From NCBI GenBank assembly GCA_964599225.1, contig CAZRDO010000003.1:8066-72065 (forward strand): a DNA stretch of 64,000 nucleotides, in the 5' to 3' direction. This document shows positions 3,151 to 56,367 of the stretch, in pieces; position 1 is the stretch's first letter; every line of letters begins with the position of its first letter. Origin of the DNA: an uncultured Candidatus Saccharibacteria bacterium (GTDB taxonomy: Bacteria; Patescibacteriota; Minisyncoccia; Phycocordibacterales; UBA9973). Below the pieces are notes generated by a model that worked only from the letters and a program-made list of their open reading frames with translations, was not told the origin of the DNA and made no database searches. The position numbers and the translations under genes were made by a program.

Positions 3151-4986
3151 ATGAATTTTCTTCGCGATCCACAATATAATGCAATTAAAGTTATCCTCAT
3201 TCTCTTAGTGATTGTTGGTGCCGCTTATTTCATTATTTCCAATATTAACAGCAGCTTTAGTGGTGTTGCCAGAGTAGCTGATTCAGATTCAGGAAATAGC
3301 AGAGAATCTGCTTCGGGTGGAACAAGAACTCCGAACGCAGGCGGTGGATCATCAAGTGGACGACCAAGGTCTGGGAGTGGAACTACGAGTAGTGGTCCAA
3401 AACAGAGCACCGTTTCAACTATAATTGAGAACATTTTCAATGGATCAGATAGTATACAGAGCACAAATCCCACCAGCCTCGGTACAACGTTACCAACTAC
3501 ACCAGATGAAAAAGTGACCAATATAGTCGGGACTACCACCACTAATTTTATAACTATTCCTAATCTTACGCCTGGCACACATACATTCTCAGTTGTAGCA
3601 ACTGATGGTAATGGTAATTCATCGGCAGAGAGTAGCCCTATCACAGTTGTGATAGATGGTACGAGTACTGGTGATAATACCGCTCCGACCCTCACTTCAA
3701 TTGTGACCGGAGTCTCTCAAACATCCGCAACAATTACTTGGGAAACAAATGAAGTTGCCTCGTCAATAGTTGAATATGGCCAAACGACCAGCTATGGTAA
3801 TTCTACGACTGAAATTGATACTGCTCCATTTGTAACCAATCACTCTGTTACTCTCACAGGACTTTCAGCAGAAATGCTGTATCATTTCCGTGTGAAGTCA
3901 TATGATGTCGCACACAATCTTGGAACTTCTTCTGATTATACTTTTACAACACAATCACTTCCGACCCCGCCAACAACCCCGGTGATTATATCTTCAAATC
4001 CTAGCTCGGGATCGAACAATAATACTCCAAAAATTTTAGGTAGCGCACCAGCCGGTACGACCGTCAAACTCTATACCGCATCTTCGTGTAGTAGTGGATC
4101 ACTGGCTGTTTCAGGAAGCGCATCAACATTTACAAATTCTGGATTGGTAGTCACTGTAGCAGATAATACTGCAACTACATTCTATGCAACTGCAACTGAT
4201 GCCCAAGCAAATGTATCAGCGTGTTCATCTGGATATACCTATAGTGAAAAGACACCGCCTACTCCAGATACTACAGACCCAGTTATTTCAAATATCAATA
4301 TTGCTGTAACCGATTCATCCGCCGGTATTAGTTGGATAACTGATGAAGCAGCGTCTTCTCGAGTCGATTACGGTCTTACAAGTGGATATGGATCTACAAG
4401 CGGGACCATTAATACCAATCCACGAGTTACGAGTCACTCCATCACGCTCTCTGGACTTACCTCAGCAACTACCTACCATATGAGTGTTACTTCTACAGAT
4501 GGAAGTAATAATACTGCGACATCAGGAGATCTTACATTTACAACAGGCACACTAACGACCTATCAATGCGCTGACGGATTTGATAATGATGGGGATAGCC
4601 TTACTGACCTCAATGATCCAGGCTGTAGTAGTTCAAGTGATGATAGTGAATTTAATGAAGTTACTTCAGGTCCAGTACAAATTAGTAATGGAGGATCTAG
4701 TAGTTCAAACAACAATCAAAATACACAACATTGTTCAGTGTATGGCTCGCCACTTACGCTCATTAAATACTGGTCAAAAGGGACAGACGCAATGGGAGTA
4801 CAAAAGGCAATCAATCAAATGCAGGCCGCAAATCCACCACTTGTTACTGATGGTATTATTGGACCAAAATCACTTCTAGGTATTAAAACGGTACAATCAA
4901 TTCTTGGAACAAAAACCGATGGTCTCTGGGGTCAGATTACCCAAGGTCTCTATGCAACATGGGCACAGCAGGTCTGTCAGGACTAG
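3151..4986 (+). CDS. Membrane-anchored surface protein with Ser/Gly-rich linker, tandem Fn3-like domains and C-terminal peptidoglycan-binding-like domain
   Basis: The N-terminus (MNFLRDPQYNAIK plus TM) matches the upstream gene. Two Fn3/purple-acid-phosphatase-N-like repeats are present (ITWETNEVASSIVEYGQTTSYG; ISWITDEAASSRVDYGLTSGYG). A CADGFDNDGDSLTDLNDPGC motif and a C-terminal PG_binding_1-like segment (LIKYWSKGTDAMGVQKAINQ...DGIIGPKS) follow. Confidence 0.55.
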   Translation: MNFLRDPQYNAIKVILILLVIVGAAYFIISNINSSFSGVARVADSDSGNSRESASGGTRTPNAGGGSSSGRPRSGSGTTSSGPKQSTVSTIIENIFNGSDSIQSTNPTSLGTTLPTTPDEKVTNIVGTTTTNFITIPNLTPGTHTFSVVATDGNGNSSAESSPITVVIDGTSTGDNTAPTLTSIVTGVSQTSATITWETNEVASSIVEYGQTTSYGNSTTEIDTAPFVTNHSVTLTGLSAEMLYHFRVKSYDVAHNLGTSSDYTFTTQSLPTPPTTPVIISSNPSSGSNNNTPKILGSAPAGTTVKLYTASSCSSGSLAVSGSASTFTNSGLVVTVADNTATTFYATATDAQANVSACSSGYTYSEKTPPTPDTTDPVISNINIAVTDSSAGISWITDEAASSRVDYGLTSGYGSTSGTINTNPRVTSHSITLSGLTSATTYHMSVTSTDGSNNTATSGDLTFTTGTLTTYQCADGFDNDGDSLTDLNDPGCSSSSDDSEFNEVTSGPVQISNGGSSSSNNNQNTQHCSVYGSPLTLIKYWSKGTDAMGVQKAINQMQAANPPLVTDGIIGPKSLLGIKTVQSILGTKTDGLWGQITQGLYATWAQQVCQD

Positions 4987-43757: not shown

Positions 43758-44168
43758 TTAGCTTTTAAGTACTCCGCTTCCTTCAGTATTCTCAAGTACT
43801 GACTCAATGTGTGGGGTGTACATGAATCTATAGGTCAGCACTTTTGTTTTACCCCAGCGATTTGAGGCACTGACGCTCAGTACATTATATCCCGAAAGTG
43901 GGGCAATGACATCAGCGAATGATCCGTCTGGAGAGAGGAGGACTTGGCGACCGTTTATATAGAGGGTGTTGACGCGCTCGGTAGTGCCAGAGAGTGGAAG
44001 TGTCGGTTCACTATACGTCATACCATTTTTGATATTTGAGAGGGAAACTGACATACCACGTATTGCAAGCGTTCCTCGAAAGTACGCATAGGCGATGACA
44101 ATCACAAACAGTAGACCAAGCGCCAGTGCACCGAGGCCAATTTTATGATGTTTAGTAATTGTCCACAT
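43758..44168 (-). CDS. Membrane-anchored hypothetical protein
   Basis: 136-aa ORF with an N-terminal TM, placed between ftsK and recA in the same orientation. Confidence 0.45.
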   Translation of the reverse strand: MWTITKHHKIGLGALALGLLFVIVIAYAYFRGTLAIRGMSVSLSNIKNGMTYSEPTLPLSGTTERVNTLYINGRQVLLSPDGSFADVIAPLSGYNVLSVSASNRWGKTKVLTYRFMYTPHIESVLENTEGSGVLKS

Positions 44169-46400: not shown

Positions 46401-46676
46401 AGATTCACATGATTATATCATGGAACAACGTATACAAATATTATTCAGATGATTATTATTTTGAATAAAATTGATATATGTTACATCAAGATTTTCCATA
46501 GTTTTATGAATGAAATCAGGATAGTTATTGGTTCGAGAACGAGGCCAGTAGACAGGTGTCAAAAGATGAGTCGCTTAGGCATAAAGTAGCAGTCAAGAAC
46601 TTGCAAAGGGATACTGTCCTATATATACTCTTGGTGTCTTTTAGGTTATTTTTTATTAAGGACAGAGATTTTTCAA

Positions 46677-47492
46677 ATGGACTTATATAAAAAAAATAAT
46701 GAAACTCTATCACAGGCTCCAGCTGGTAGTCTTAATTCTCCTTTGCTACATAAGGCTATTTCTAATAAGGACAGTGTCTTTTTAGAACAAAGGACACAAA
46801 AACTCTCTACTGCTATCCACATGGTTACGGATTCGTTACCAGAGACTGAGGCACTAAGACATGACCTGCGAGCAGTCAGTTTGAAACTATTGGGAGCTTC
46901 GTTCTCACTTGAACTTTCTTCTGGTGAATCCCAGGCCCTCCAATTCAAAGAGCTTGAAGTTGGAGTGAGGAATATCATGGCACTTGTAGAACTCGCCAAA
47001 ACAATTGGACTTATGGGCCAGATGAATGCAGACATCCTTTTGCAAGAACTCAAAAACATAGGATCATATGTACTTGAATATTCTAATCGAGCCACAAGAG
47101 AAAGTGGAGTACTCATTCGTACAGAGAAACTCATGGAGGTGTCACTTGAAGGCATGTTCCCAATATTCGAAAACAAAACCACTTTAATAGGACACGATTC
47201 TGGTCAAAAAGGACAGGTATTAAACACAGAATCATATAAAGGACATCAGGAATTAAATAAGAGATATCGGAACCCAAAACAGCTAGAAGTTGTCCTTAAG
47301 AGTGAGCGAAGAAGTGCGATACTTGGAGTCCTTAAAAATAAGGGAGAGATTAGTGTCAAAGATGCTTCAGAAGTAATAAAAGATTATAGTGAAAAGACAA
47401 TTCAGCGTGAACTTATAAGTATGGTTAGTGAAGGAATTTTGAATAAAATTGGCAATAAAAGGTGGTCAAAATATTCCATAAGGACAAAGTAA
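46677..47492 (+). CDS. Hypothetical protein with C-terminal DeoR-like winged HTH (possible regulator or Rep-like DNA-binding protein)
   Basis: The C-terminal RRSAILGVLKNKGEISVKDASEVIKDYSEKTIQRELISMVSEGILNKIG is wHTH-like. The gene body and flanks are studded with the heptamer AAGGACA. Confidence 0.45.
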   Translation: MDLYKKNNETLSQAPAGSLNSPLLHKAISNKDSVFLEQRTQKLSTAIHMVTDSLPETEALRHDLRAVSLKLLGASFSLELSSGESQALQFKELEVGVRNIMALVELAKTIGLMGQMNADILLQELKNIGSYVLEYSNRATRESGVLIRTEKLMEVSLEGMFPIFENKTTLIGHDSGQKGQVLNTESYKGHQELNKRYRNPKQLEVVLKSERRSAILGVLKNKGEISVKDASEVIKDYSEKTIQRELISMVSEGILNKIGNKRWSKYSIRTK

Positions 47493-47524
47493 TTGTAAAG
47501 GACAGTTATGTAATTAAGACACAT

Positions 47525-47554
47525 AAAAGGACATATAAATTTATATGTCCTTTT
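47525..47554. promoter_or_regulatory. Perfect 30-bp palindrome (AAAAGGACATATAAAT|TTATATGTCCTTTT), candidate operator/iteron cluster
   Basis: Two inverted AAGGACA half-sites. Direct copies lie at 47480, 47498 and 47527, and an imperfect inverted copy (CGGACA) at 47558-47563. An AT-rich stem-loop follows at 47569-47620. Confidence 0.4.
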
Positions 47555-48248
47555 ATGTGTCCGTTTGAGTGTGAGCTAAATATTAAACAATACATTTATT
47601 TGTATTCTAGAGGCTCACACTGTAAGGGATTGGATCTTTACCCGTCATATTTGGTAGCCGATAGTGAGCTCTATTGGCACCATATTAGATCTATAGTTTG
47701 TAGTTGAGAGAGATTTGCGAGCCATCAAATTTAGCCATGATGAGGAAGTGGAGTGCTACAGCAATGTAGACCTCGACTTATCCACAAATTGCCACTTTTG
47801 TGTGAGTTTGCAAATCAATGCAATTATAGCTATACTAGCTCGGTGCATACCTAATCGCTCTTTTGAGTGACTTTGTGCGCATAGGTTTATGGTCGCTTTT
47901 AGATAGGGGCGATCAGATAACCAAGGAAGTCGATTCAATGAACATTGAAAAGTGAATAGAAGTAAATAGGATGACGGCGCTACCCGATTCCTATATATGT
48001 ATGTTTTCTTTTTGATTTTGTTGGCTACGGCTTCTGCCCTGTCGACAAAGGCAATTCCGTTCCGAGTGGATTCGTCCACAGAGAACAACCTTCAGACGCC
48101 TTAATTAAGCGCCTGAATATATTCTTAACGATGCGCATCAATACTACAGTGGTTTTGTCGAACCACTATTAATCAGATAAGCGCATCAGCCCTCTTATAT
48201 AAATTGTTAAAGAATTTTTATAATGGCAACTTATACACGATAAATATT

Positions 48249-50153
48249 ATGAGTAAATTATTTAAAATTTCAGTCGCCGCTTTTGCTCTCCTTGCACTCG
48301 TTGCAGTTGGCTCAAAAGCAAATGCTGAAACTTGGGATTTCGGTACAACAACCCTTAAAATGGGTTCAAGTGGTACTTTTGTAATGAATCTCCAGACAGC
48401 ACTTAATACATGCGCAAGTGCAGGCCTCACTGCTGACGGATCGTTTGGTCCTAAGACAGATGCTGCAGTACGTGCGTTCCAAACAGCACACGCTCTCGTT
48501 GCTGACGGTCTCGTTGGTATGAATACCAAAGCTGCCCTTAATTCATGCGGAGGCGTGATTACTGGTGGAACAGGTTCATGTCCTACAGGCTTCACATGCG
48601 CTCCAACAACTCCAGTCGCTTGTCCAGCAGGCTTCACATGTACACCAGCAGGTGGCAGTGGAACTGTTACAGGTGGCGCAGGATCAGTTGACTCTTACAA
48701 CGAACTTTCATCTTTCTCTAACGAGGAAGTAGGAGAGGACGAAGAAGATGTTGAAATCGGAGGTATTGAAGTTGAAGTAGGAGATGGCTCTGACATAATG
48801 GTCACAGCTGTTAAACTTGACTTCTCTACACAGCCTGGAAATGATGACCTTGGTGACTTCATCACTGAAGTTGCAATTATGGTTGACGGTGAAGAGTTCG
48901 CTCGCGTTGACGCAGACGAATTCAACGATGACAATGATTGGACAAAGACTGTCACACTTTCAGACGGTGCAATCATCAAAGAAAATGAGACAGGAGAAAT
49001 TACTGTCGCAGTTACAGGAGTAAGTAACATTGACTCAGATGACGCTGGTGATGACTGGGCTCTTGATTTCGTGACAGTCCGATTTGAGGACGGTCAAGGA
49101 GCAACTATCTCAGAAGACACTGGTACAGATGCATTTGCATGGCAAGTAGATACGTTTGCCTCTGCCGCTGACGTTGAGCTCAAAGTTGCTGAAAGTAACG
49201 ACAATCCTGAAGCACAAGTTGTAGATATTGATTCATCCGATGACACCAATGGTGTTGAGGTTCTCAGATTTACTCTTGAAGCTAATGGTTCTGACATCGA
49301 AGTTAAGGATATTCCTGTTCTCTTCACAGTAACAGGAGCTACCGATGTTGATGCAGTTATCAACACCGCATACCTTACAATCGATGGAGAAGAATTCTCT
49401 GAATCTGTATCAACAAGCACAGCTGCAGCAACAGTTACTTTTGATGACATTGACTTCACAGTTGATGAAGGAGAAGAAGTTGAAGTAGTTGTTACAGTTG
49501 ATGTTAATAATACAGACTCAGCATTCGAACAAGGAGATACAATTAAGGCTGAACTCCGTGCAGCTTCAGAAGTTGACGGAATTGACGCTGAAGACCAAAC
49601 AGGTGAAGATCTAGCAATTGGTGATCTTACTGGTTCTGCTCTCGGTGAAGTAATGTCATTCTATGACGCAGGTATTATGGTTTCATTCGTGTCTGCTACA
49701 GAATCTTCTGCAGTTGATGATGGATCAGATGATGATACTGGTACCTTTGTACTCAAGTTCACAGTTGAAGCCTTTGGTGGAACAGTGTATGTGTCTGACA
49801 CAGCCGCTGCAACCGTCTCAACTTCAATTGCTGAAACATCGCTTACTAATGCAGACGGAATTCTCTACCTCGTAGAAGATTCTGGTACCGCTACAGTAGA
49901 TGATCTTGCTGATCTTCTTACTGAAGAAGGTGATGCTGATCTCAGTGCTTCAAACAACTGGACCCTTACAGATGGTGAAGAGTCTACATTCACGCTTACA
50001 GTCACACAGACAAATGACTCTATAGAAGACGACGGTCTCTACCGAATGCTTCTCAAGTCAATCGGATGGAATACAACTGATTCTGCAACTGTATACAATG
50101 TATACGACTTCGACCTTGAAGACTTCAAGACAGATCCTCTCTCTCTTAACTAA
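48249..50153 (+). CDS. Secreted peptidoglycan-binding-domain protein with Cys-rich linker and long highly acidic repetitive domain
   Basis: Signal peptide MSKLFKISVAAFALLALVAVGSKANA, then PG_binding_1-like (LQTALNTCASAGLTADGSFGPKTDAAVRAFQ). A tandem CPTGFTCAP / CPAGFTCTP repeat follows, then ~480 aa with more than 25% D+E. ATG at 48249; the track start at 48204 is upstream. Confidence 0.55.
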   Translation: MSKLFKISVAAFALLALVAVGSKANAETWDFGTTTLKMGSSGTFVMNLQTALNTCASAGLTADGSFGPKTDAAVRAFQTAHALVADGLVGMNTKAALNSCGGVITGGTGSCPTGFTCAPTTPVACPAGFTCTPAGGSGTVTGGAGSVDSYNELSSFSNEEVGEDEEDVEIGGIEVEVGDGSDIMVTAVKLDFSTQPGNDDLGDFITEVAIMVDGEEFARVDADEFNDDNDWTKTVTLSDGAIIKENETGEITVAVTGVSNIDSDDAGDDWALDFVTVRFEDGQGATISEDTGTDAFAWQVDTFASAADVELKVAESNDNPEAQVVDIDSSDDTNGVEVLRFTLEANGSDIEVKDIPVLFTVTGATDVDAVINTAYLTIDGEEFSESVSTSTAAATVTFDDIDFTVDEGEEVEVVVTVDVNNTDSAFEQGDTIKAELRAASEVDGIDAEDQTGEDLAIGDLTGSALGEVMSFYDAGIMVSFVSATESSAVDDGSDDDTGTFVLKFTVEAFGGTVYVSDTAAATVSTSIAETSLTNADGILYLVEDSGTATVDDLADLLTEEGDADLSASNNWTLTDGEESTFTLTVTQTNDSIEDDGLYRMLLKSIGWNTTDSATVYNVYDFDLEDFKTDPLSLN

Positions 50154-50226: not shown

Positions 50227-50310
50227 TTCCATAAACAATCATCGCATTGCATTAAAAGACAAACATGATAAAGTGCGAGTATTACAATTAGTTATGGTCC
50301 ATGAAATGCC

Positions 50311-53300
50311 ATGAATAAAAGCTTATATTTCCGTAATAAAAATATGAAACGCCTTGCCAAACTAACCGCATTTTCTGCGGCCTTTTTATTACTCCTCGAG
50401 CCTGTTTTTGTTGTCTTAGCTCAACAAGAACTACCTTCTTCTAATTCCATACAGGCTTCAGAAACTGTGGTACCAGTCACTGTTTCTGAAGTAGAGCCAA
50501 GTCCCACTAATACTCAGGAAGTAAATCCTAGTGAGATAAAAGATCTTATTGAAAGTAAGGTTATTGAAAAAGAGCTAAGGGGCAAATTAAAGGATAGGGA
50601 CCGAAATGATAATATAAAATTAGGTGGGGAGGGGATATCAAAAACACTCCAAGCAACTGAAAGTACAAAATTATTACCTAAAACCGATCCGTCCACTGGG
50701 GCACTCTTATATTCCTATCGTGTGGGACTTCCTGAAGGTAGAAATAATTTAACGCCTGAGCTTGCTCTTGAGTACAATAGCAATAGTAAAGATTCTCGTA
50801 GTTATATTGGATCGGGATGGGAGTTTAATATTCCTTCAATTGTACGGATTAACAAATATGGTTCAGAGCAAATGTACGATCATCATGATTTCTCCTCAAG
50901 TCTTTCAGGGGAGTTAATAAATATTTCTGGAATTTCTTATTCTGCGAAGGTAGAAAATAATGATTTTCTCTCCTATACGTTTTCAAATAATACTTGGACA
51001 GTTTACGATAAAGACGGTACGAGGTACGTATTTGGTCAAAGTGCAGAAACTCGGCAAGATGATCCTAGTGATAGCGCTCGTATTTATAAATGGATGCTTG
51101 AAGAAGTGCGCGATACGAATGATAATTACATTCGTTATGAATATTATAAAGACACAGGTCAGATTTATCCCTCGAAAATAATATATACAGGCCACGGTTC
51201 AGAAGAAGGAATGTTTGAGGTTATTTTTAATCGAGATGGAACATTTACAATGAGTCCTACATTGTATAGTACTGGTTTCGAAGTGAAAACTAAGTATAGA
51301 ATTTCTAGTATTGAAGTAGTAGAGAATGGTAATTGGGTTAAAAGATACGAAATTAGTTATGATGATACACAAAGCGGCAGACTTCCTATAGCAATTACAG
51401 AGTCGGGAAAAGATTTACAATCCGGAGTAGTTTCAATTGATAGTCCGACTAAGTTTACCTATAAAACACAAGAGACATCATTGGGATGGTCACAGACTGA
51501 GAATAATCTCTGGGAACTTCCTCACGCACTCTATTCTGGTGAAAATGGACCCACTCATATTCAAGTGAGAGATATAAATAATGATGCGTATCCGGATGTG
51601 CTCTTCTTCTCTGATGAAGAAACAGAGTGTCTTTATAAGAATACTTTCATAAATAATACTCATGGGGGATGGATAAATTATGGTGGCTGTGGAGCAGATT
51701 GGGAAATCCCAATATACTTAAGAAATCCCTATAATTTGTACTCTGACTATGGAACTCGTGCATTTGATTACAATGGTGATTTTCTCACCGATCTCATATG
51801 GTCATATGCATCTAACAAAGGCGTAACTGTTCCTGTCTCACAGACATTCAGAAATACTGGAGACCCAATTGACCCTTGGGTGCCCGATGATGTATATCCT
51901 CCGGTAGCGTTTGTGTATTACGATAATGTGCATGCTGATAATGGCGCGCAGATTATTGATGTAAACGGCGATGGGTTGCAAGATATCGTACGTTCTTTTA
52001 GTGATGGTTCTGAGCAAGATTATACTTATTTGAATAACGGATCTGGATGGATACAAGCAGCTCCAAATGATTGGGTATTGCCTGTGGGTATTATCACTCA
52101 AGATGGTGGACCAGATGATAACTTCACTCATGCACAATTTGTAGATATTAATGGGGATGGACTCACTGATATTTATTGGAGTGATGATGATAATCCAATG
52201 CTTGAGCGTACCTTTATCAATAATGGTCATACTTGGCTTCCTGATAGCATAGGTGACTGGACTATTCCTTTACCATTTTGGTCTAGAGAAGGTGCTGAAA
52301 TTGGGAATACGGATGCGGGCAGTCGAAGTACTGACGTGAATGGTGATGGAGCTATTGATCTTGTCTCTAGCCATTGTTGGAATTCGAATTGTGACGAAGT
52401 TGTAGGTTCGGTATGGCTAAATAAAAATGATGAATTTTCATCCGGAAGCTCATTCTATTTTACAGAAACTATTGTCCCTGAAGCTTTTGTAAATAACAAT
52501 TATGTGACCTTATACTCAGTTATTGTCGATATGAACGCTGATGGTATGGATGATATAACGTATGCATTGAGTGGAGAAGATGCGAGAACACACTTATCAA
52601 AATCTACTCCGTTCGTCAATCTTCTTGTAAGTATCGAAACACCATATGGGGGAGTTGCAAACATTAGTTATAAGCCATCGACAAAGTATTATGATGATAG
52701 CGGTATACTTCAGAATCCAAAGCTTCCGATTTTGATCACAACTGTTGATTCAATTACCACCGATGATGGATTTGGAAACGTTGCAACTGAGCATTTCACA
52801 TATGCTGATGGATTTTATTATTTTAATTCTCCACACGATCGCAAATTTGCTGGATTTGGAGTAGTGACAAGTACAGATTCTGTCGGTAATGTCGTGAAGA
52901 CCTACTATCACCAAGGCAATACCACAAACACATCTCTTGGTGAGGACACGGATCATATTTCCAAAATGGGTAGATCATATCGCACTGAAGAGTATGATGA
53001 CAGTGGTAATTTATATCGTCTTACAGTGAATAAGTGGGATAAATATGATATCGGTGTTGATCATGATTTTGTGAAACTTGCTCGTACCACCACGCTTACC
53101 TATGATGGTGATTCTGATCACAAAGATACTGCTGTTGAATATACATACGACAACGCGAACGGTAATCTGCTTACCGAAATAAACTATGGAGAAGTCATAG
53201 CAAATACTGATGGAAGTTTTACTGACACGAGTACGGATAAAGGTACAGTGGCTTATTTGTACGCAATAAATGGTAGTGGCCGATTCGCGATTTCTCAGCA

Positions 53301-56300
53301 AACACTTGTCAATAATGCTGGCAACAAAGTGAGTGATGCAAAATATTATTATGATAATCAAGCTTTTGGGGCACTCACACTTGGGAATACTACTAAGGTT
53401 CGTAATTGGAAAACAGGCTCACAGTGGGTTGATACACTAACAAGTTATAATTCATTTGGTCTGCCGATTACCACCACAGATCCGCGTGGCAAAGTCACTC
53501 AATATACAAACGATTCATACAATCTCTATCCTGCTACTATTACCAACTCACTGCTTCAAACTACGCAATATGTATATGATTATTCTTCCGGTAAACCAAC
53601 ACAGATCACTGATGCGAATAATCTAGTCACAAAAATAATGTTTGATGGCTTGGATCGTATTATCGAAGAAAAAATCCCTGACCTTACGACGCCAAGTACA
53701 CTGGTTACTAAAACAACATATACCTACACTGATACGCCAGGTGCGGTATCTGTGCACAAGACAGACTATTTAGATGACGCTACGAATGTTGATAGCTACC
53801 AATATTTTGACGGTCTTGGTCGTATCTTTCAAGAACGTAGAGAAGCCGAAGCCACTAATACATTTAATGTCAAAGATAGTATCTACAATACTCGCGGGCT
53901 TCTGGAGAAAGAATCTCTACCCTATGCCTCGACTGGAAGTGCTCGTACAGTATCCACTACTGATGGAGCACTTTATTCGACAAACACGTACGATGCACTC
54001 GCACGACCACTCACAACATCAAACATTCTCGGTACTACAGCCTTTGTATATGATGATTGGAAAACTACGATCACTGATACCAACGGAAAAGAGAAAATTT
54101 TCACTAATGGTGCAAGAGGTAATCTTACTAAAGTTGAAGAAAAAAATGGTGTGAGCACATACACGACATCCTATAAATGGGATCTGGTAAAAAATCTCAC
54201 TAAAATCACAGATGCACTCGGGAATATCCGCAATTTCACCTATGACGGACTTGGCCGCAAGCTGACTGCAGAAGACCTCCATGCTTCAGCTGACACAACA
54301 TTCGGGATTTGGTCTTATGGATATGATGATGCTGGTAATCTCACGCAATCAATTGATCCAAAGAATCAGACGATTAATTACACATATGATGATATCAATC
54401 GTAAATTAACTGAAGATTTTACTGGCGCGACTGGAACAGAAATTGTGTACGCGTACGATAGTGGGATATATGGCAAAGGGTATCTTGCAAGTGCCACTCT
54501 TCCTTCAGTTACCACTACCTACACTTACAATCCTCACGGCACTCTTGCAAGTGAGACAAAAACGATCGATGGAAGTGCATATACTACAAGTTATACATAT
54601 GATCGTTTAGGCAACCAAACCGTAGTGACCTACCCAGACCTTTCTCAAATGAAATATTTATATAGCACAGCAGGTTATCTCAACAAAATTCGTCGAAAGG
54701 AAAATGGCGGGAGTTTTGTCGATGTAGTGACGAGTTTCAATTATGCTCCAACAGGAGAAGTGAAAGTCATTAATTTTGCTAATGGTGTCAGTACAACCAA
54801 CACGTATGACGCAACTAAGCTCTACCGTCATACTAATAAAAAAACAAACATTGGTTCGACCAAATATCAAAATATTGGTTATACATATGATTCGGTTGGT
54901 AATATCACACAAATTGTCGATTCATCAAATACTAATACTGCGAAAACACTTACTTTTACCTACGACGATTTGTATCGACTTCTTTCAGCGACCTCAAATG
55001 GTGCGGTGGCAGGTGGTAACTTTACTGAAACGTATTCTTACAATGAACTTGGGAACATTCTCTCAAAGTCGGATGTTGGTACGTATGCGTATGCTGGCAA
55101 TACTGGTACACTCTTTGCCAATCCTCACGCTCCGACATCGATCGCCAGCGTTTCTCGGACCTATGATAAAAACGGCAATCTGTTAAATGATGGTGCCAAT
55201 ATATATACTTGGAATTACAAAAATCAACTTGCAAGTACGACTACTCCTGGTGGAGCGCTCTCATATATTTATGACCATAGTGGCTCAAGACAAAAGTATA
55301 TTACCCAAACCTCCACAACAATCACCCCAAACCGGTACTATGAAGAAGAGGGAACAATAAAACGTCGCCATATCTACGGAGGAGACACGTTGCTGGCAAC
55401 GATTGAAAAAGATGGAACAACGATCACTCCATACTATGTCCACAGTGACCACTTAGGATCGGTGGAGAAGATCACGAACCAGGCGGGGTTAGTCACCGAG
55501 CTCAATGATTTCTACCCATTCGGCAAGGTTCGGTACACTGAAGGAGGTACTGGAGGAGATAAAACATTCCTTGGGAAATATCATGATGTTGAGAGTGGTC
55601 TTGAATATTTAGAAGCACGGTATTATGGTAGCAAGCTTGGACAGTTTACTACTCAGGATCCGGCGTTTTTAGTTGTGGGAAATCCGAATGCAATTAAGTC
55701 ACTTACTTCACTCGAATTTGTCCAATATCTTTCTGATCCACAGGCAATGAATAGCTACAATTACGCGCGGAATAATCCGATTAAATACAAAGATGATGGA
55801 GGGAAATATTGGGAGTCAGCTCTCGATATTGCTTCATTATCACTGTCTCTAAGGGACTACCAAGCGAAACCAACACTTAAGAACTATCTTTTTGTTAGTG
55901 CCGATGTACTATCATTAGCATTTCCGGTTCCAGCATTTATCGGTTATGCTCGTCATGCTGATGAACTTGGAGATGCAGCAGGTATCTTAAAACGTCATGA
56001 ATCGATGGGAGGGCATACTCTAAAAACACATGTTGGACAGAGCAATGAGGCTCTTAAGGCACGATTTAATAACCCAAGATTTCATTCAGACTATTCAACA
56101 ACATTTCACTCTGAAGAAATTGGTAACCATGCAACATATAAAAACATTCAGAATAATATTGATAAAATTAATTCATGGATGGCAAATCCCAATGCTTTTA
56201 AATTAGAAATAAGTTCTAATCTAAGTGAAAATTTGGGCCATGGTTTTACCAGGGATGGCCATATTCTTGAAAATCTTACTGAAGTTCGGTTGATACTTAC

Positions 56301-56367
56301 GAAAACACAAAATGGTAAAGAATATATAAAATCATCGTATCCTTTTAAAAGTAGTAATAGTAATTAA
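50311..56367 (+). CDS. RHS/YD-repeat polymorphic toxin with Tc-toxin-B-like N-terminal region and variable C-terminal toxin domain
   Basis: Signal peptide; an alternative ATG at 50344 gives a better signal peptide. SpvB-like segment (YSYRVGLPEGRNNLTPELALEYNS...GSGWEFNIPSI). FG-GAP/VCBS-like repeats (DINNDAYPDV, DVNGDGLQDI, DINGDGLTDI, DVNGDGAIDL). Many YD repeats (YTYDGLGRKL, YGYDDAGNLT, YTYDRLGNQT). RHS core (RYYGSKLGQFTTQDP...NSYNYARNNPIKYKDDGG), then ~190 aa of unique C-terminus. Confidence 0.85.
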   Translation: MNKSLYFRNKNMKRLAKLTAFSAAFLLLLEPVFVVLAQQELPSSNSIQASETVVPVTVSEVEPSPTNTQEVNPSEIKDLIESKVIEKELRGKLKDRDRNDNIKLGGEGISKTLQATESTKLLPKTDPSTGALLYSYRVGLPEGRNNLTPELALEYNSNSKDSRSYIGSGWEFNIPSIVRINKYGSEQMYDHHDFSSSLSGELINISGISYSAKVENNDFLSYTFSNNTWTVYDKDGTRYVFGQSAETRQDDPSDSARIYKWMLEEVRDTNDNYIRYEYYKDTGQIYPSKIIYTGHGSEEGMFEVIFNRDGTFTMSPTLYSTGFEVKTKYRISSIEVVENGNWVKRYEISYDDTQSGRLPIAITESGKDLQSGVVSIDSPTKFTYKTQETSLGWSQTENNLWELPHALYSGENGPTHIQVRDINNDAYPDVLFFSDEETECLYKNTFINNTHGGWINYGGCGADWEIPIYLRNPYNLYSDYGTRAFDYNGDFLTDLIWSYASNKGVTVPVSQTFRNTGDPIDPWVPDDVYPPVAFVYYDNVHADNGAQIIDVNGDGLQDIVRSFSDGSEQDYTYLNNGSGWIQAAPNDWVLPVGIITQDGGPDDNFTHAQFVDINGDGLTDIYWSDDDNPMLERTFINNGHTWLPDSIGDWTIPLPFWSREGAEIGNTDAGSRSTDVNGDGAIDLVSSHCWNSNCDEVVGSVWLNKNDEFSSGSSFYFTETIVPEAFVNNNYVTLYSVIVDMNADGMDDITYALSGEDARTHLSKSTPFVNLLVSIETPYGGVANISYKPSTKYYDDSGILQNPKLPILITTVDSITTDDGFGNVATEHFTYADGFYYFNSPHDRKFAGFGVVTSTDSVGNVVKTYYHQGNTTNTSLGEDTDHISKMGRSYRTEEYDDSGNLYRLTVNKWDKYDIGVDHDFVKLARTTTLTYDGDSDHKDTAVEYTYDNANGNLLTEINYGEVIANTDGSFTDTSTDKGTVAYLYAINGSGRFAISQQTLVNNAGNKVSDAKYYYDNQAFGALTLGNTTKVRNWKTGSQWVDTLTSYNSFGLPITTTDPRGKVTQYTNDSYNLYPATITNSLLQTTQYVYDYSSGKPTQITDANNLVTKIMFDGLDRIIEEKIPDLTTPSTLVTKTTYTYTDTPGAVSVHKTDYLDDATNVDSYQYFDGLGRIFQERREAEATNTFNVKDSIYNTRGLLEKESLPYASTGSARTVSTTDGALYSTNTYDALARPLTTSNILGTTAFVYDDWKTTITDTNGKEKIFTNGARGNLTKVEEKNGVSTYTTSYKWDLVKNLTKITDALGNIRNFTYDGLGRKLTAEDLHASADTTFGIWSYGYDDAGNLTQSIDPKNQTINYTYDDINRKLTEDFTGATGTEIVYAYDSGIYGKGYLASATLPSVTTTYTYNPHGTLASETKTIDGSAYTTSYTYDRLGNQTVVTYPDLSQMKYLYSTAGYLNKIRRKENGGSFVDVVTSFNYAPTGEVKVINFANGVSTTNTYDATKLYRHTNKKTNIGSTKYQNIGYTYDSVGNITQIVDSSNTNTAKTLTFTYDDLYRLLSATSNGAVAGGNFTETYSYNELGNILSKSDVGTYAYAGNTGTLFANPHAPTSIASVSRTYDKNGNLLNDGANIYTWNYKNQLASTTTPGGALSYIYDHSGSRQKYITQTSTTITPNRYYEEEGTIKRRHIYGGDTLLATIEKDGTTITPYYVHSDHLGSVEKITNQAGLVTELNDFYPFGKVRYTEGGTGGDKTFLGKYHDVESGLEYLEARYYGSKLGQFTTQDPAFLVVGNPNAIKSLTSLEFVQYLSDPQAMNSYNYARNNPIKYKDDGGKYWESALDIASLSLSLRDYQAKPTLKNYLFVSADVLSLAFPVPAFIGYARHADELGDAAGILKRHESMGGHTLKTHVGQSNEALKARFNNPRFHSDYSTTFHSEEIGNHATYKNIQNNIDKINSWMANPNAFKLEISSNLSENLGHGFTRDGHILENLTEVRLILTKTQNGKEYIKSSYPFKSSNSN

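Follow-up and report, generated by a model that had tools for sequence, protein, structure and literature searches.

We sought to identify the role of a short DNA word, AAGGACA, that recurs around a single gene in a 64,000-nucleotide (nt) stretch of contig CAZRDO010000003.1 from an uncultured Candidatus Saccharibacteria bacterium. This whole stretch is referred to as the window. The gene (46677-47492, plus strand) encodes a 271-residue protein that ends in a winged helix-turn-helix (wHTH) domain. A sequence-only reading of this DNA had offered two explanations for the repeats, namely an operator or autoregulatory array beside a DNA-binding gene, or an iteron-type replication origin of an integrated or ancestral plasmid. 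The analysis described here supports the former, because the sites cluster at 82 related loci, abut the -10 hexamer of the gene's own promoter, are phased at ~10.5 bp in the leader and are protected at synonymous codon positions. With reasonable rather than strong confidence, we favor the interpretation that copies of a 9-bp motif, TAAARGACA, are sites for the wHTH protein encoded there and form a self-directed autoregulatory operator array.

A repeated motif in the window and across its gene family

Exact AAGGACA or its complement TGTCCTT occurs 12 times in the window, and 10 of these copies fall inside 46658-47552 (at 46658, 46767, 46790, 47209, 47239, 47480, 47498 and 47527, and as the reverse complement at 47291 and 47546). 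Dinucleotide shuffles of the whole window gave a chance expectation of 9.8 copies per 64 kb or ~0.15 per kb, which corresponds to ~0.15-0.2 copies in the interval that holds ten. Order-1 and order-2 Markov models of the region itself predicted 0.23-0.66 copies per 981 bp and never more than 3-5 across 5000 simulations. The Poisson probability of at least ten copies was ~1e-14, so the excess previously noticed within ~1 kb around the wHTH gene was borne out. Several of the positions first listed for it lay a few bases off (46761, 46789 and 47233 are correctly 46767, 46790 and 47239), the reverse-complement copy placed at 46612 turned out to be TGTCCTA at 46615, with one mismatch, and the reverse-complement copy at 47291 had been missed. 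When the variant AAAGACA was added, 13 of 37 window sites lay inside 46635-47546, and the window held no second AA[AG]GACA cluster.

The motif is a feature of the gene family. We compared 82 loci, comprising the window, two loci designated L001 and L002, and 79 GTDB representatives, whose proteins are ~30% identical. In an unbiased count of 7-mers, AAGGACA and/or AAAGACA was the top enriched word in most of these loci. AA[AG]GACA was found at 704 sites within the gene and 300 bp to either side (6.1 per kb) vs 164 sites in 511 kb of flanking DNA (0.32 per kb), an enrichment of 19-fold. The number of sites per locus had a median of 9 (range 2-14), and 73 of the loci held at least five. The heptamer forms the core of the longer consensus TAAARGACA, with the additional flanking T present at 66-69% and the A at 74-85% of locus sites; matches in the flanks lack both. 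Across 502 kb of flanks, just one instance of two sites spaced within 60 bp was found.

The position of the sites relative to the promoter is also conserved. Upstream of the gene lies a promoter of the form TTGCAw/TTGACw-17-TATAAT, and GGACA directly follows the -10 hexamer (TATAATGGACA; TATA[AC]T[GA]GACA) in 45 of the 82 loci, at a distance of 53-134 nt upstream of the ATG. The same combination was found elsewhere in the loci only twice. A perfect dyad, TGTCCGwTATATAATGGACA, surrounds the -10 hexamer in 11 loci. Later sites follow at +17, +48, +69, +80, +90 and +100 from the start of the hexamer, and the last 100 nt before the ATG contain 126 plus-strand vs 14 minus-strand copies. Pairwise distances within this 5' cluster peak at 11, 19-21, 30-32, 49-52 and 61-63 nt, with a Rayleigh z of 25-31 at periods of 10.5-11 bp. 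Because the spacing is phased at ~10.5 bp, the leader sites lie on one face of the DNA helix. A second cluster is located at nt 450-800 of the coding sequence, in the parts encoding the linker and the wHTH domain, and the first 100 nt past the stop hold just 9 plus-strand and 11 minus-strand copies across all 82 loci.

Within the window, a consensus scan placed the promoter of the wHTH gene at 46601-46629 (plus strand), with the -35 hexamer TTGCAA at 46601-46606, a 17-nt spacer and the -10 hexamer TATACT at 46624-46629, a layout that recurs in 45 or more homologous loci. Two minus-strand sites flank this -10 hexamer. The first (TATAGGACA, 46615-46623, one mismatch) lies in the promoter spacer, abuts the hexamer and is the counterpart of the TGTCC arm in the TGTCC-N10-GGACA dyad found around the -10 of other loci. 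The second is an exact copy (TAAAAGACA, 46635-46643) over the predicted transcription start, as placed by the usual distance of 6-7 nt from the -10. A plus-strand copy (TTAAGGACA, 46656-46664) follows within the 5' leader, at a distance of 13 nt from the ATG. Inside the gene, the variable N-terminal coding part carries ATAAGGACA (46765-46773, plus), AAAAAGACA (46775-46783, minus) and CAAAGGACA (46788-46796, plus), and the part encoding the disordered linker carries AAAAGGACA (47207-47215, plus) and TAAAGGACA (47237-47245, plus), which encode the linker peptides QKGQ and YKGH. Further copies are TTAAGGACA (47291-47299, minus) and GAAAAGACA (47391-47399, plus), the latter encoding E239-K240-T241 of the recognition helix. 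Two direct plus-strand copies close the series, ATAAGGACA in the last codons of the gene (47478-47486) and TAAAGGACA just past the stop (47496-47504), and both are kept in L001. Motif positions share 91% identity between the window and L001, compared with 70% at other positions; the block 46600-46704 is ~97% identical, and the ftsK-side half of the intergenic region ~45%.

One further exact copy of TAAAAGACA stands apart from the cluster at 50253-50261, between the hexamers TTGCAT and TAAAGT (50247-50275) and upstream of a 2018-residue RHS/YD-like open reading frame (50311-56367). About one exact 9-mer is expected by chance per window, and this copy may mark a second promoter under the regulator's control or may be a coincidence.

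Codon choice at the sites within the gene

Sites inside a coding sequence may reflect the protein, the DNA or both. As a null model, synonymous codons were permuted within each of the 82 genes, and in a second null model the order of codons was shuffled. Sense copies in the coding sequence numbered 421, vs 164±9 expected from synonymous permutation (2.6-fold, 27 standard deviations above the mean) and 35±6 expected from codon-order shuffling. Antisense copies numbered 102 vs 25±4 expected from synonymous permutation, or 4-fold. The bias toward the sense strand within the gene is attributable to coding constraints, and antisense copies are more enriched over expectation than sense copies.

The same preference is seen at individual peptides. 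KKTEK is encoded with AAG-ACA in 44 of 51 cases vs ~16% expected, and at the equivalent of the recognition-helix site (47391-47399) AAG-ACA is used in 27 of the 82 loci, again vs ~16%. The linker peptide KG[HQ] is encoded with AAA-GGA in 76 of 88 cases vs 24% expected. Moreover, the codon that precedes KG[HQ] has T as its third base regardless of which residue it specifies (TCT, TAT, CAT, AAT or GAT). Since this preceding codon keeps its T across residues, it is the DNA string T-AAA-GGA-CA that is conserved and not the peptide.

The encoded protein and a proposed autoregulatory array

The full-length protein is covered by no curated family in Pfam or NCBIfam. Its Pfam HTH_DeoR match is marginal (22.7 bits, residues 211-258 of 271), and matches to Pfam bAvd (PF22296; 21.6 bits vs a cut-off of 40, residues 36-130) and NCBIfam NF033474 (16.5 vs a cut-off of 80) lie below threshold. 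Sequence searches of NCBIfam, PHROGs, PADLOC and PDB returned generic wHTH matches only. Assignment to a defence system was considered and dropped, as PADLOC gave only weak, wHTH-level CARF-HTH matches. An AlphaFold2 model (predicted local distance difference test score of 77) consists of a four-helix bundle (residues 22-142), a disordered linker (146-190) and the C-terminal wHTH domain (200-268). In Foldseek searches the modeled bundle superposed on 4dwl, 8ub7, 2gsc and 2rld with template modeling (TM) scores of 0.82-0.87 and root-mean-square deviations of 1.2-2.3 Å, and also on Avd-like phage models, while the wHTH domain superposed on the ArsR/CadC and MecI/BlaI folds (1xsd, 1sd7 and 1u2w). 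The structural neighbors of the bundle include the homopentameric Avd, Xcc0516 and BT_0352. Since these neighbors are pentamers, the Avd-like bundle of the model suggests oligomerization.

Homologues are ~270-residue proteins of Patescibacteria (Paceibacteria/Parcubacteria), of which a database search returned 69, and the pattern S[EI]KTIQREL was matched in at least 597 GTDB species genomes. An exact-sequence look-up of the window protein gave no match, a scan of JGI metagenomes for relatives of the window's clade gave distant homologues only, and literature searches yielded no account of the family or its motif. In the family alignment the N-terminal and linker regions are variable and the recognition-helix segment SEKTIQRELxxLVxxGxLxKxGxxRWSxY is invariant. 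Across the family, the invariant recognition helix SEKTIQRE is matched by an invariant motif.

We compared this locus with known systems of similar appearance. It falls outside the Rep/iteron, DeoR, Avd or diversity-generating retroelement (DGR), and Par/Tub groups, because defining features of each were tested for and are not found here. The closest parallels are the BlaI/MecI and ArsR/CadC autorepressors, which share the fold of the C-terminal domain and whose sites, including a dyad, likewise overlap their own -10 or start. In contrast to these, the wHTH here occupies the C-terminus of a fusion with an Avd-like bundle, the sites number about nine and are mostly direct rather than one or two dyads, they run through the coding sequence with selection at the codon level, and no sensor domain or partner gene was recognized. 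DeoR proteins are oligomers that use several operators, and the HTH matches PF08220 in 23 of 33 family members; however, it lies at the C-terminus (residues 211-258 of 271), and no match to a DeoRC effector or sensor domain was found.

Among systems that build larger assemblies, the iteron initiators RepA, pi and TrfA resemble this locus in having a winged-helix protein, direct and inverted repeats beside its own gene, and an autoregulatory logic. They differ in that the protein here has no Rep (WH1-WH2) homology, the motif is a dispersed 9-mer rather than a tandem 17-22-bp iteron, and the gene is a conserved core-chromosomal one where no DnaA-box cluster, DNA unwinding element or skew switch was seen. 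TubR-tubC, ParR-parC and the oligomeric wHTH excision factor RdfS (PMC11963761) likewise rely on a small DNA-binding protein, a wHTH in TubR and RdfS. Proteins of this type coat helix-phased arrays of direct repeats and repress their own operon, and the array described here resembles theirs; unlike theirs, it has no TubZ, ParM, ParA or recombinase neighbor, its sites lie inside the gene, and it is chromosomal and vertically conserved. Avd and bAvd, the accessory proteins of DGRs (with Xcc0516 and BT_0352), share the N-terminal four-helix bundle (TM 0.82-0.87), but here the Pfam score is below the cut-off, a wHTH domain is fused to the bundle, and neither a reverse transcriptase nor template or variable repeats lie nearby. 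DGR involvement, suggested by the Avd-like fold and the fast evolution of the gene, was rejected since no reverse transcriptase was present in any neighborhood.

At this locus, the sites overlap the gene's own core promoter and start, and they are conserved at orthologues above background together with a conserved DNA-reading helix. Judging from these sequence comparisons, the gene's own product is most likely the binder and its binding most likely represses the gene; judging from the model, the product is probably oligomeric. The Avd-like four-helix bundle would assemble the product into an oligomer carrying several flexibly tethered wHTH domains, and the flexible linker of ~50 residues would let the oligomer present these domains to similarly oriented, phased sites. 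The oligomer could then fill the sites that abut the -10, cover the transcription start, are helically phased in the leader and first codons, and continue within the coding sequence. Occupancy of the sites would block RNA polymerase, such that the gene represses itself. In the window and L001, two extra direct sites and an inverted pair follow past the stop, and the inverted pair forms a palindrome that is most likely a terminator hairpin.

Several observations weigh against this interpretation. Shared ancestry among the loci means that the phasing statistics, including the Rayleigh z, overstate independence, and the 3' (linker) cluster has no helical phasing. In the window itself the minus strand carries the sites adjacent to the -10, and the dyad is degenerate in its right half. 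The composition of the protein, rich in K, D, T and G, accounts for part of the enrichment within the gene (164 vs 35 expected copies). Promoter occlusion in its simple form does not account for sites located 500-800 bp inside the gene or beyond the stop. Finally, a factor other than the product could recognize the sites.

This last possibility takes the form of a different protein that reads the sites, or of a special promoter or discriminator feature, with the wHTH gene merely a regulated target. The link between product and motif comes from sequence comparison, and TATAATGGACA can be read as an extended -10 or discriminator. However, the array is limited to the wHTH gene in 502 kb of flanks and the 64-kb window, the motif co-occurs with the invariant recognition helix across the family, and a promoter feature would not explain copies on both strands deep in the coding sequence; we regard this explanation as distinctly unlikely. 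An even lower probability attaches to action in the mRNA, for example as the site of an RNA-binding protein that controls translation or stability. Such a role would fit the strand ratios of 126:14 before the ATG and 421:102 in the coding sequence, as well as the copy that abuts the ATG in many loci at the place of a ribosome-binding site. Yet the most conserved copy, just after the -10, and the upstream arm of the dyad are probably untranscribed, antisense copies exceed their synonymous expectation 4-fold vs 2.6-fold for sense copies, and phasing at ~10.5 bp is a property of the DNA helix, which together argue for recognition of DNA rather than RNA. A mere artefact of composition or coding in an A-rich gene for a K/D/T/G-rich protein is scarcely credible. 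The protein sequence alone does lift the expected sense count from 35 to 164, but the 421 copies observed lie 27 standard deviations above the synonymous-permutation mean, noncoding upstream copies are enriched ~50-fold, the flanking T and A bases are conserved, and the codon before KG[HQ] keeps its T and not its amino acid.

Other explanations accept that the product binds the array and differ in what the binding is for. In one, its role is chiefly architectural, and a multivalent oligomer wraps or loops ~1 kb of DNA into a nucleoprotein landmark, for example a centromere-like or FtsK-related one. We consider this unlikely, though it draws on several observations: a median of 9 sites spread over ~1 kb including the coding sequence, inverted pairs past the stop in several lineages, an array exclusive to the wHTH locus in the sampled DNA, near-universal pairing with divergent ftsK (79 of 81 loci), and an N-terminal domain that resembles homopentameric Avd-type bundles. 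Against it, the neighborhood has no partner nucleoside triphosphatase (ParA, TubZ or ParM), no GC-skew switch marks an origin or terminus, the best-conserved sites lie exactly on the -10 and start region as a repressor needs, and the spread within the gene may just show where the protein sequence tolerates sites. A more specific version, to which we give somewhat less weight still, holds that a pentameric, Avd-scaffolded assembly with five tethered wHTH domains wraps its own gene as a Paceibacteria landmark coupled to FtsK in segregation or division, with autoregulation as a by-product. If this were true, linker peptides such as YKGH would be translated DNA sites and not functional residues. 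The iteron-type origin or integrated-plasmid remnant is highly improbable and found no support. Direct repeats and an inverted repeat do adjoin a wHTH gene, and one exact DnaA-box sequence (TTATCCACA) lies at 47778-47786. However, no Rep-family or other initiator match was found in Pfam, NCBIfam, PHROGs or PDB sequence and fold searches, the repeats are 9-mers dispersed over ~1 kb with many inside the coding sequence and not tandem 17-22-bp iterons, and the lone DnaA-box-like site belongs to the next promoter, upstream of which it is conserved in 58 of the 82 loci. The chromosomal synteny in ~80 species and the presence of the gene in at least 597 species genomes also speak against it. GC-skew analysis, which had been proposed as a check for an origin or terminus, was run; the cumulative skew rises monotonically across the window with no switch, so neither lies here.

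The region past the stop and the genomic neighborhood

The autoregulatory interpretation leaves a set of features downstream of the gene to be described. A perfect palindrome had been noted at 47525-47554 with a length of 30 bp. The palindrome is real, and it is longer than reported, a perfect 44-mer at 47518-47561 (both strands) with 22-nt arms and no spacer, containing inverted motif copies at 47525-47533 (plus) and 47546-47554 (minus) flanked by A4 and T4. As RNA it folds into a 20-bp hairpin of -29 to -31 kcal/mol (z = -6.4) located 26 nt after the stop, with the inner stem GGACAUAUA/UAUAUGUCC followed by UUUUAUGU. A4 and U4 lie on either side of the inner stem, an arrangement also seen in bidirectional terminators. 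A simple consensus terminator scan made no call, because base pairing within the full 20-bp stem takes up the U-run. In L001 an 18-bp hairpin is kept, where a U inserted in the left arm is offset by an A inserted in the right arm. As no closer relatives of the window's clade were found, the palindrome can be compared with L001 alone. Many other loci have GC-rich hairpin-plus-U terminators at its position; the downstream direct copies together with the palindrome are a feature of the window and L001 clade and not of the whole family, and inverted site pairs past the stop also occur in the loci L071, L013 and L043. The palindrome is probably the gene's intrinsic terminator, in bidirectional form, built from two inverted sites, and it possibly doubles as a high-affinity dyad site or operator. 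A dif/Xer site, suggested by the adjacent ftsK, was considered for the palindrome and rejected on inspection, as its arms are unlike the 11-6-11 dif layout and no skew switch is present.

A second stem-loop follows at 47568-47621 (plus strand, -23 kcal/mol, z = -4.3), where GTGTGAGC (47569-47576) pairs with GCTCACAC (47613-47620). It had been described as a GC stem enclosing an AT-rich, unwinding-like element. The stem is real and extends to 10 bp, but the loop is not marked as an unwinding element and the stem sequences are lost in L001. In Rfam searches at the gathering threshold, covering the whole window and 17 loci, no match was found, and in E-value mode over 47400-48300 only spurious miRNA-hairpin matches to the palindrome appeared. 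ARAGORN found no tRNA or tmRNA. A different array takes the palindrome's place in locus L062, where ~18 copies of GGGACTA, tandem-like and inverted, lie directly past the stop (4801-4920).

Further downstream, exact TTATCCACA, the DnaA-box consensus, occurs on the plus strand only at 0-400 nt past the stop in 58 of the 82 loci, or in 66 when TTATCCCCA is allowed. The box precedes, by 5-20 nt, a strong TTGCA-17-TATAAT promoter (in the window, 47808-47836), which drives a leader of 300-400 nt ahead of a PG_binding_1 surface-protein gene (window 47778-48248). At the start of these leaders is a long hairpin with arms that covary from clade to clade, and the leaders have no Rfam match. About 26 of them carry (G)ACTTTGACAAyTAAATA, which may be a counterpart of the Firmicutes-type rrn boxA antitermination element. 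A terminator-like GC hairpin, TTCAGGCGCTTAATTAAGGCGTCTGAA, lies within the window's leader on the opposite strand (48091-48117, minus) and, read on the plus strand, could be a structural element of the leader. An S-layer-like gene could here have a structured or antiterminated leader of an undescribed kind. An ultra-conserved noncoding RNA in 47790-48200, suggested by near-100% identity to L001, was dropped; at other loci the gap shows no resemblance in nucleotide sequence, and the identity to L001 is uninformative because the two genomes are simply close.

The surrounding genes are arranged in a highly conserved order, with recA, a small Glucodextran_B-like gene and ftsK transcribed away from the wHTH gene, and a gap of 400-1100 bp on the other side leading to the PG_binding_1 surface protein. 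The upstream, divergent position of ftsK that the sequence-only reading had reported was confirmed by FtsK Pfam domains in the 92%-identical copy of L001, and this arrangement is found in 79 of 81 loci. RecA is present in 65 of 81 loci and PG_binding_1 downstream in 53 of 81; the neighbors seen were ftsK, the Glucodextran_B-like small gene, recA, PG_binding_1 and Wzy_C. In the three most distant members examined, synteny is kept, and motif enrichment is clear in two and weaker in the third. Since this synteny holds in ~80 species, the locus belongs to the core chromosome and not to a mobile element. The small gene between ftsK and recA encodes a protein of ~136 residues with a weak Glucodextran_B match (window 43758-44168, minus) and occupies that position in 61 of 81 loci, such that recA, the small gene and ftsK form a fixed operon across Paceibacteria. 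A LexA-like SOS repressor, suggested by the adjacent recA, was considered and rejected, as the protein lacks an S24 peptidase domain and no sites occur on the ftsK-recA intergenic side. Comparison with L001 showed that the wHTH gene and the first 250 nt 3' of it evolve much faster than their surroundings, with the motif copies retained. The wHTH protein is 67% identical (window 46677-47492 vs L001 5001-5816), and RecA, the PG-binding protein and FtsK are 99.7%, 95.5% and 91.7% identical, respectively.

The pairing of regulator and motif described here is previously undescribed, extends to the level of a phylum and has an unusual, self-embedded array of sites. Patescibacteria (the candidate phyla radiation) have very few recognizable regulators and almost no defined regulatory DNA motifs, and a protein family found in at least 597 species-level genomes beside ftsK and recA is now tied to a 9-bp motif and a defined promoter. 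Although the organisms are uncultured, the link between regulator and motif can be tested with a synthetic gene and oligonucleotides. The locus is also a clear case of embedded DNA sites shaping a coding sequence. The site T-AAA-GGA-CA accounts for KGH/KGQ, the sole residues conserved in the disordered linker, an observation that calls for caution when conservation is read at the level of the protein. Lastly, the fusion of an Avd-like bundle to a wHTH domain, as seen in the structural model, suggests an undescribed design for multivalent DNA binding.

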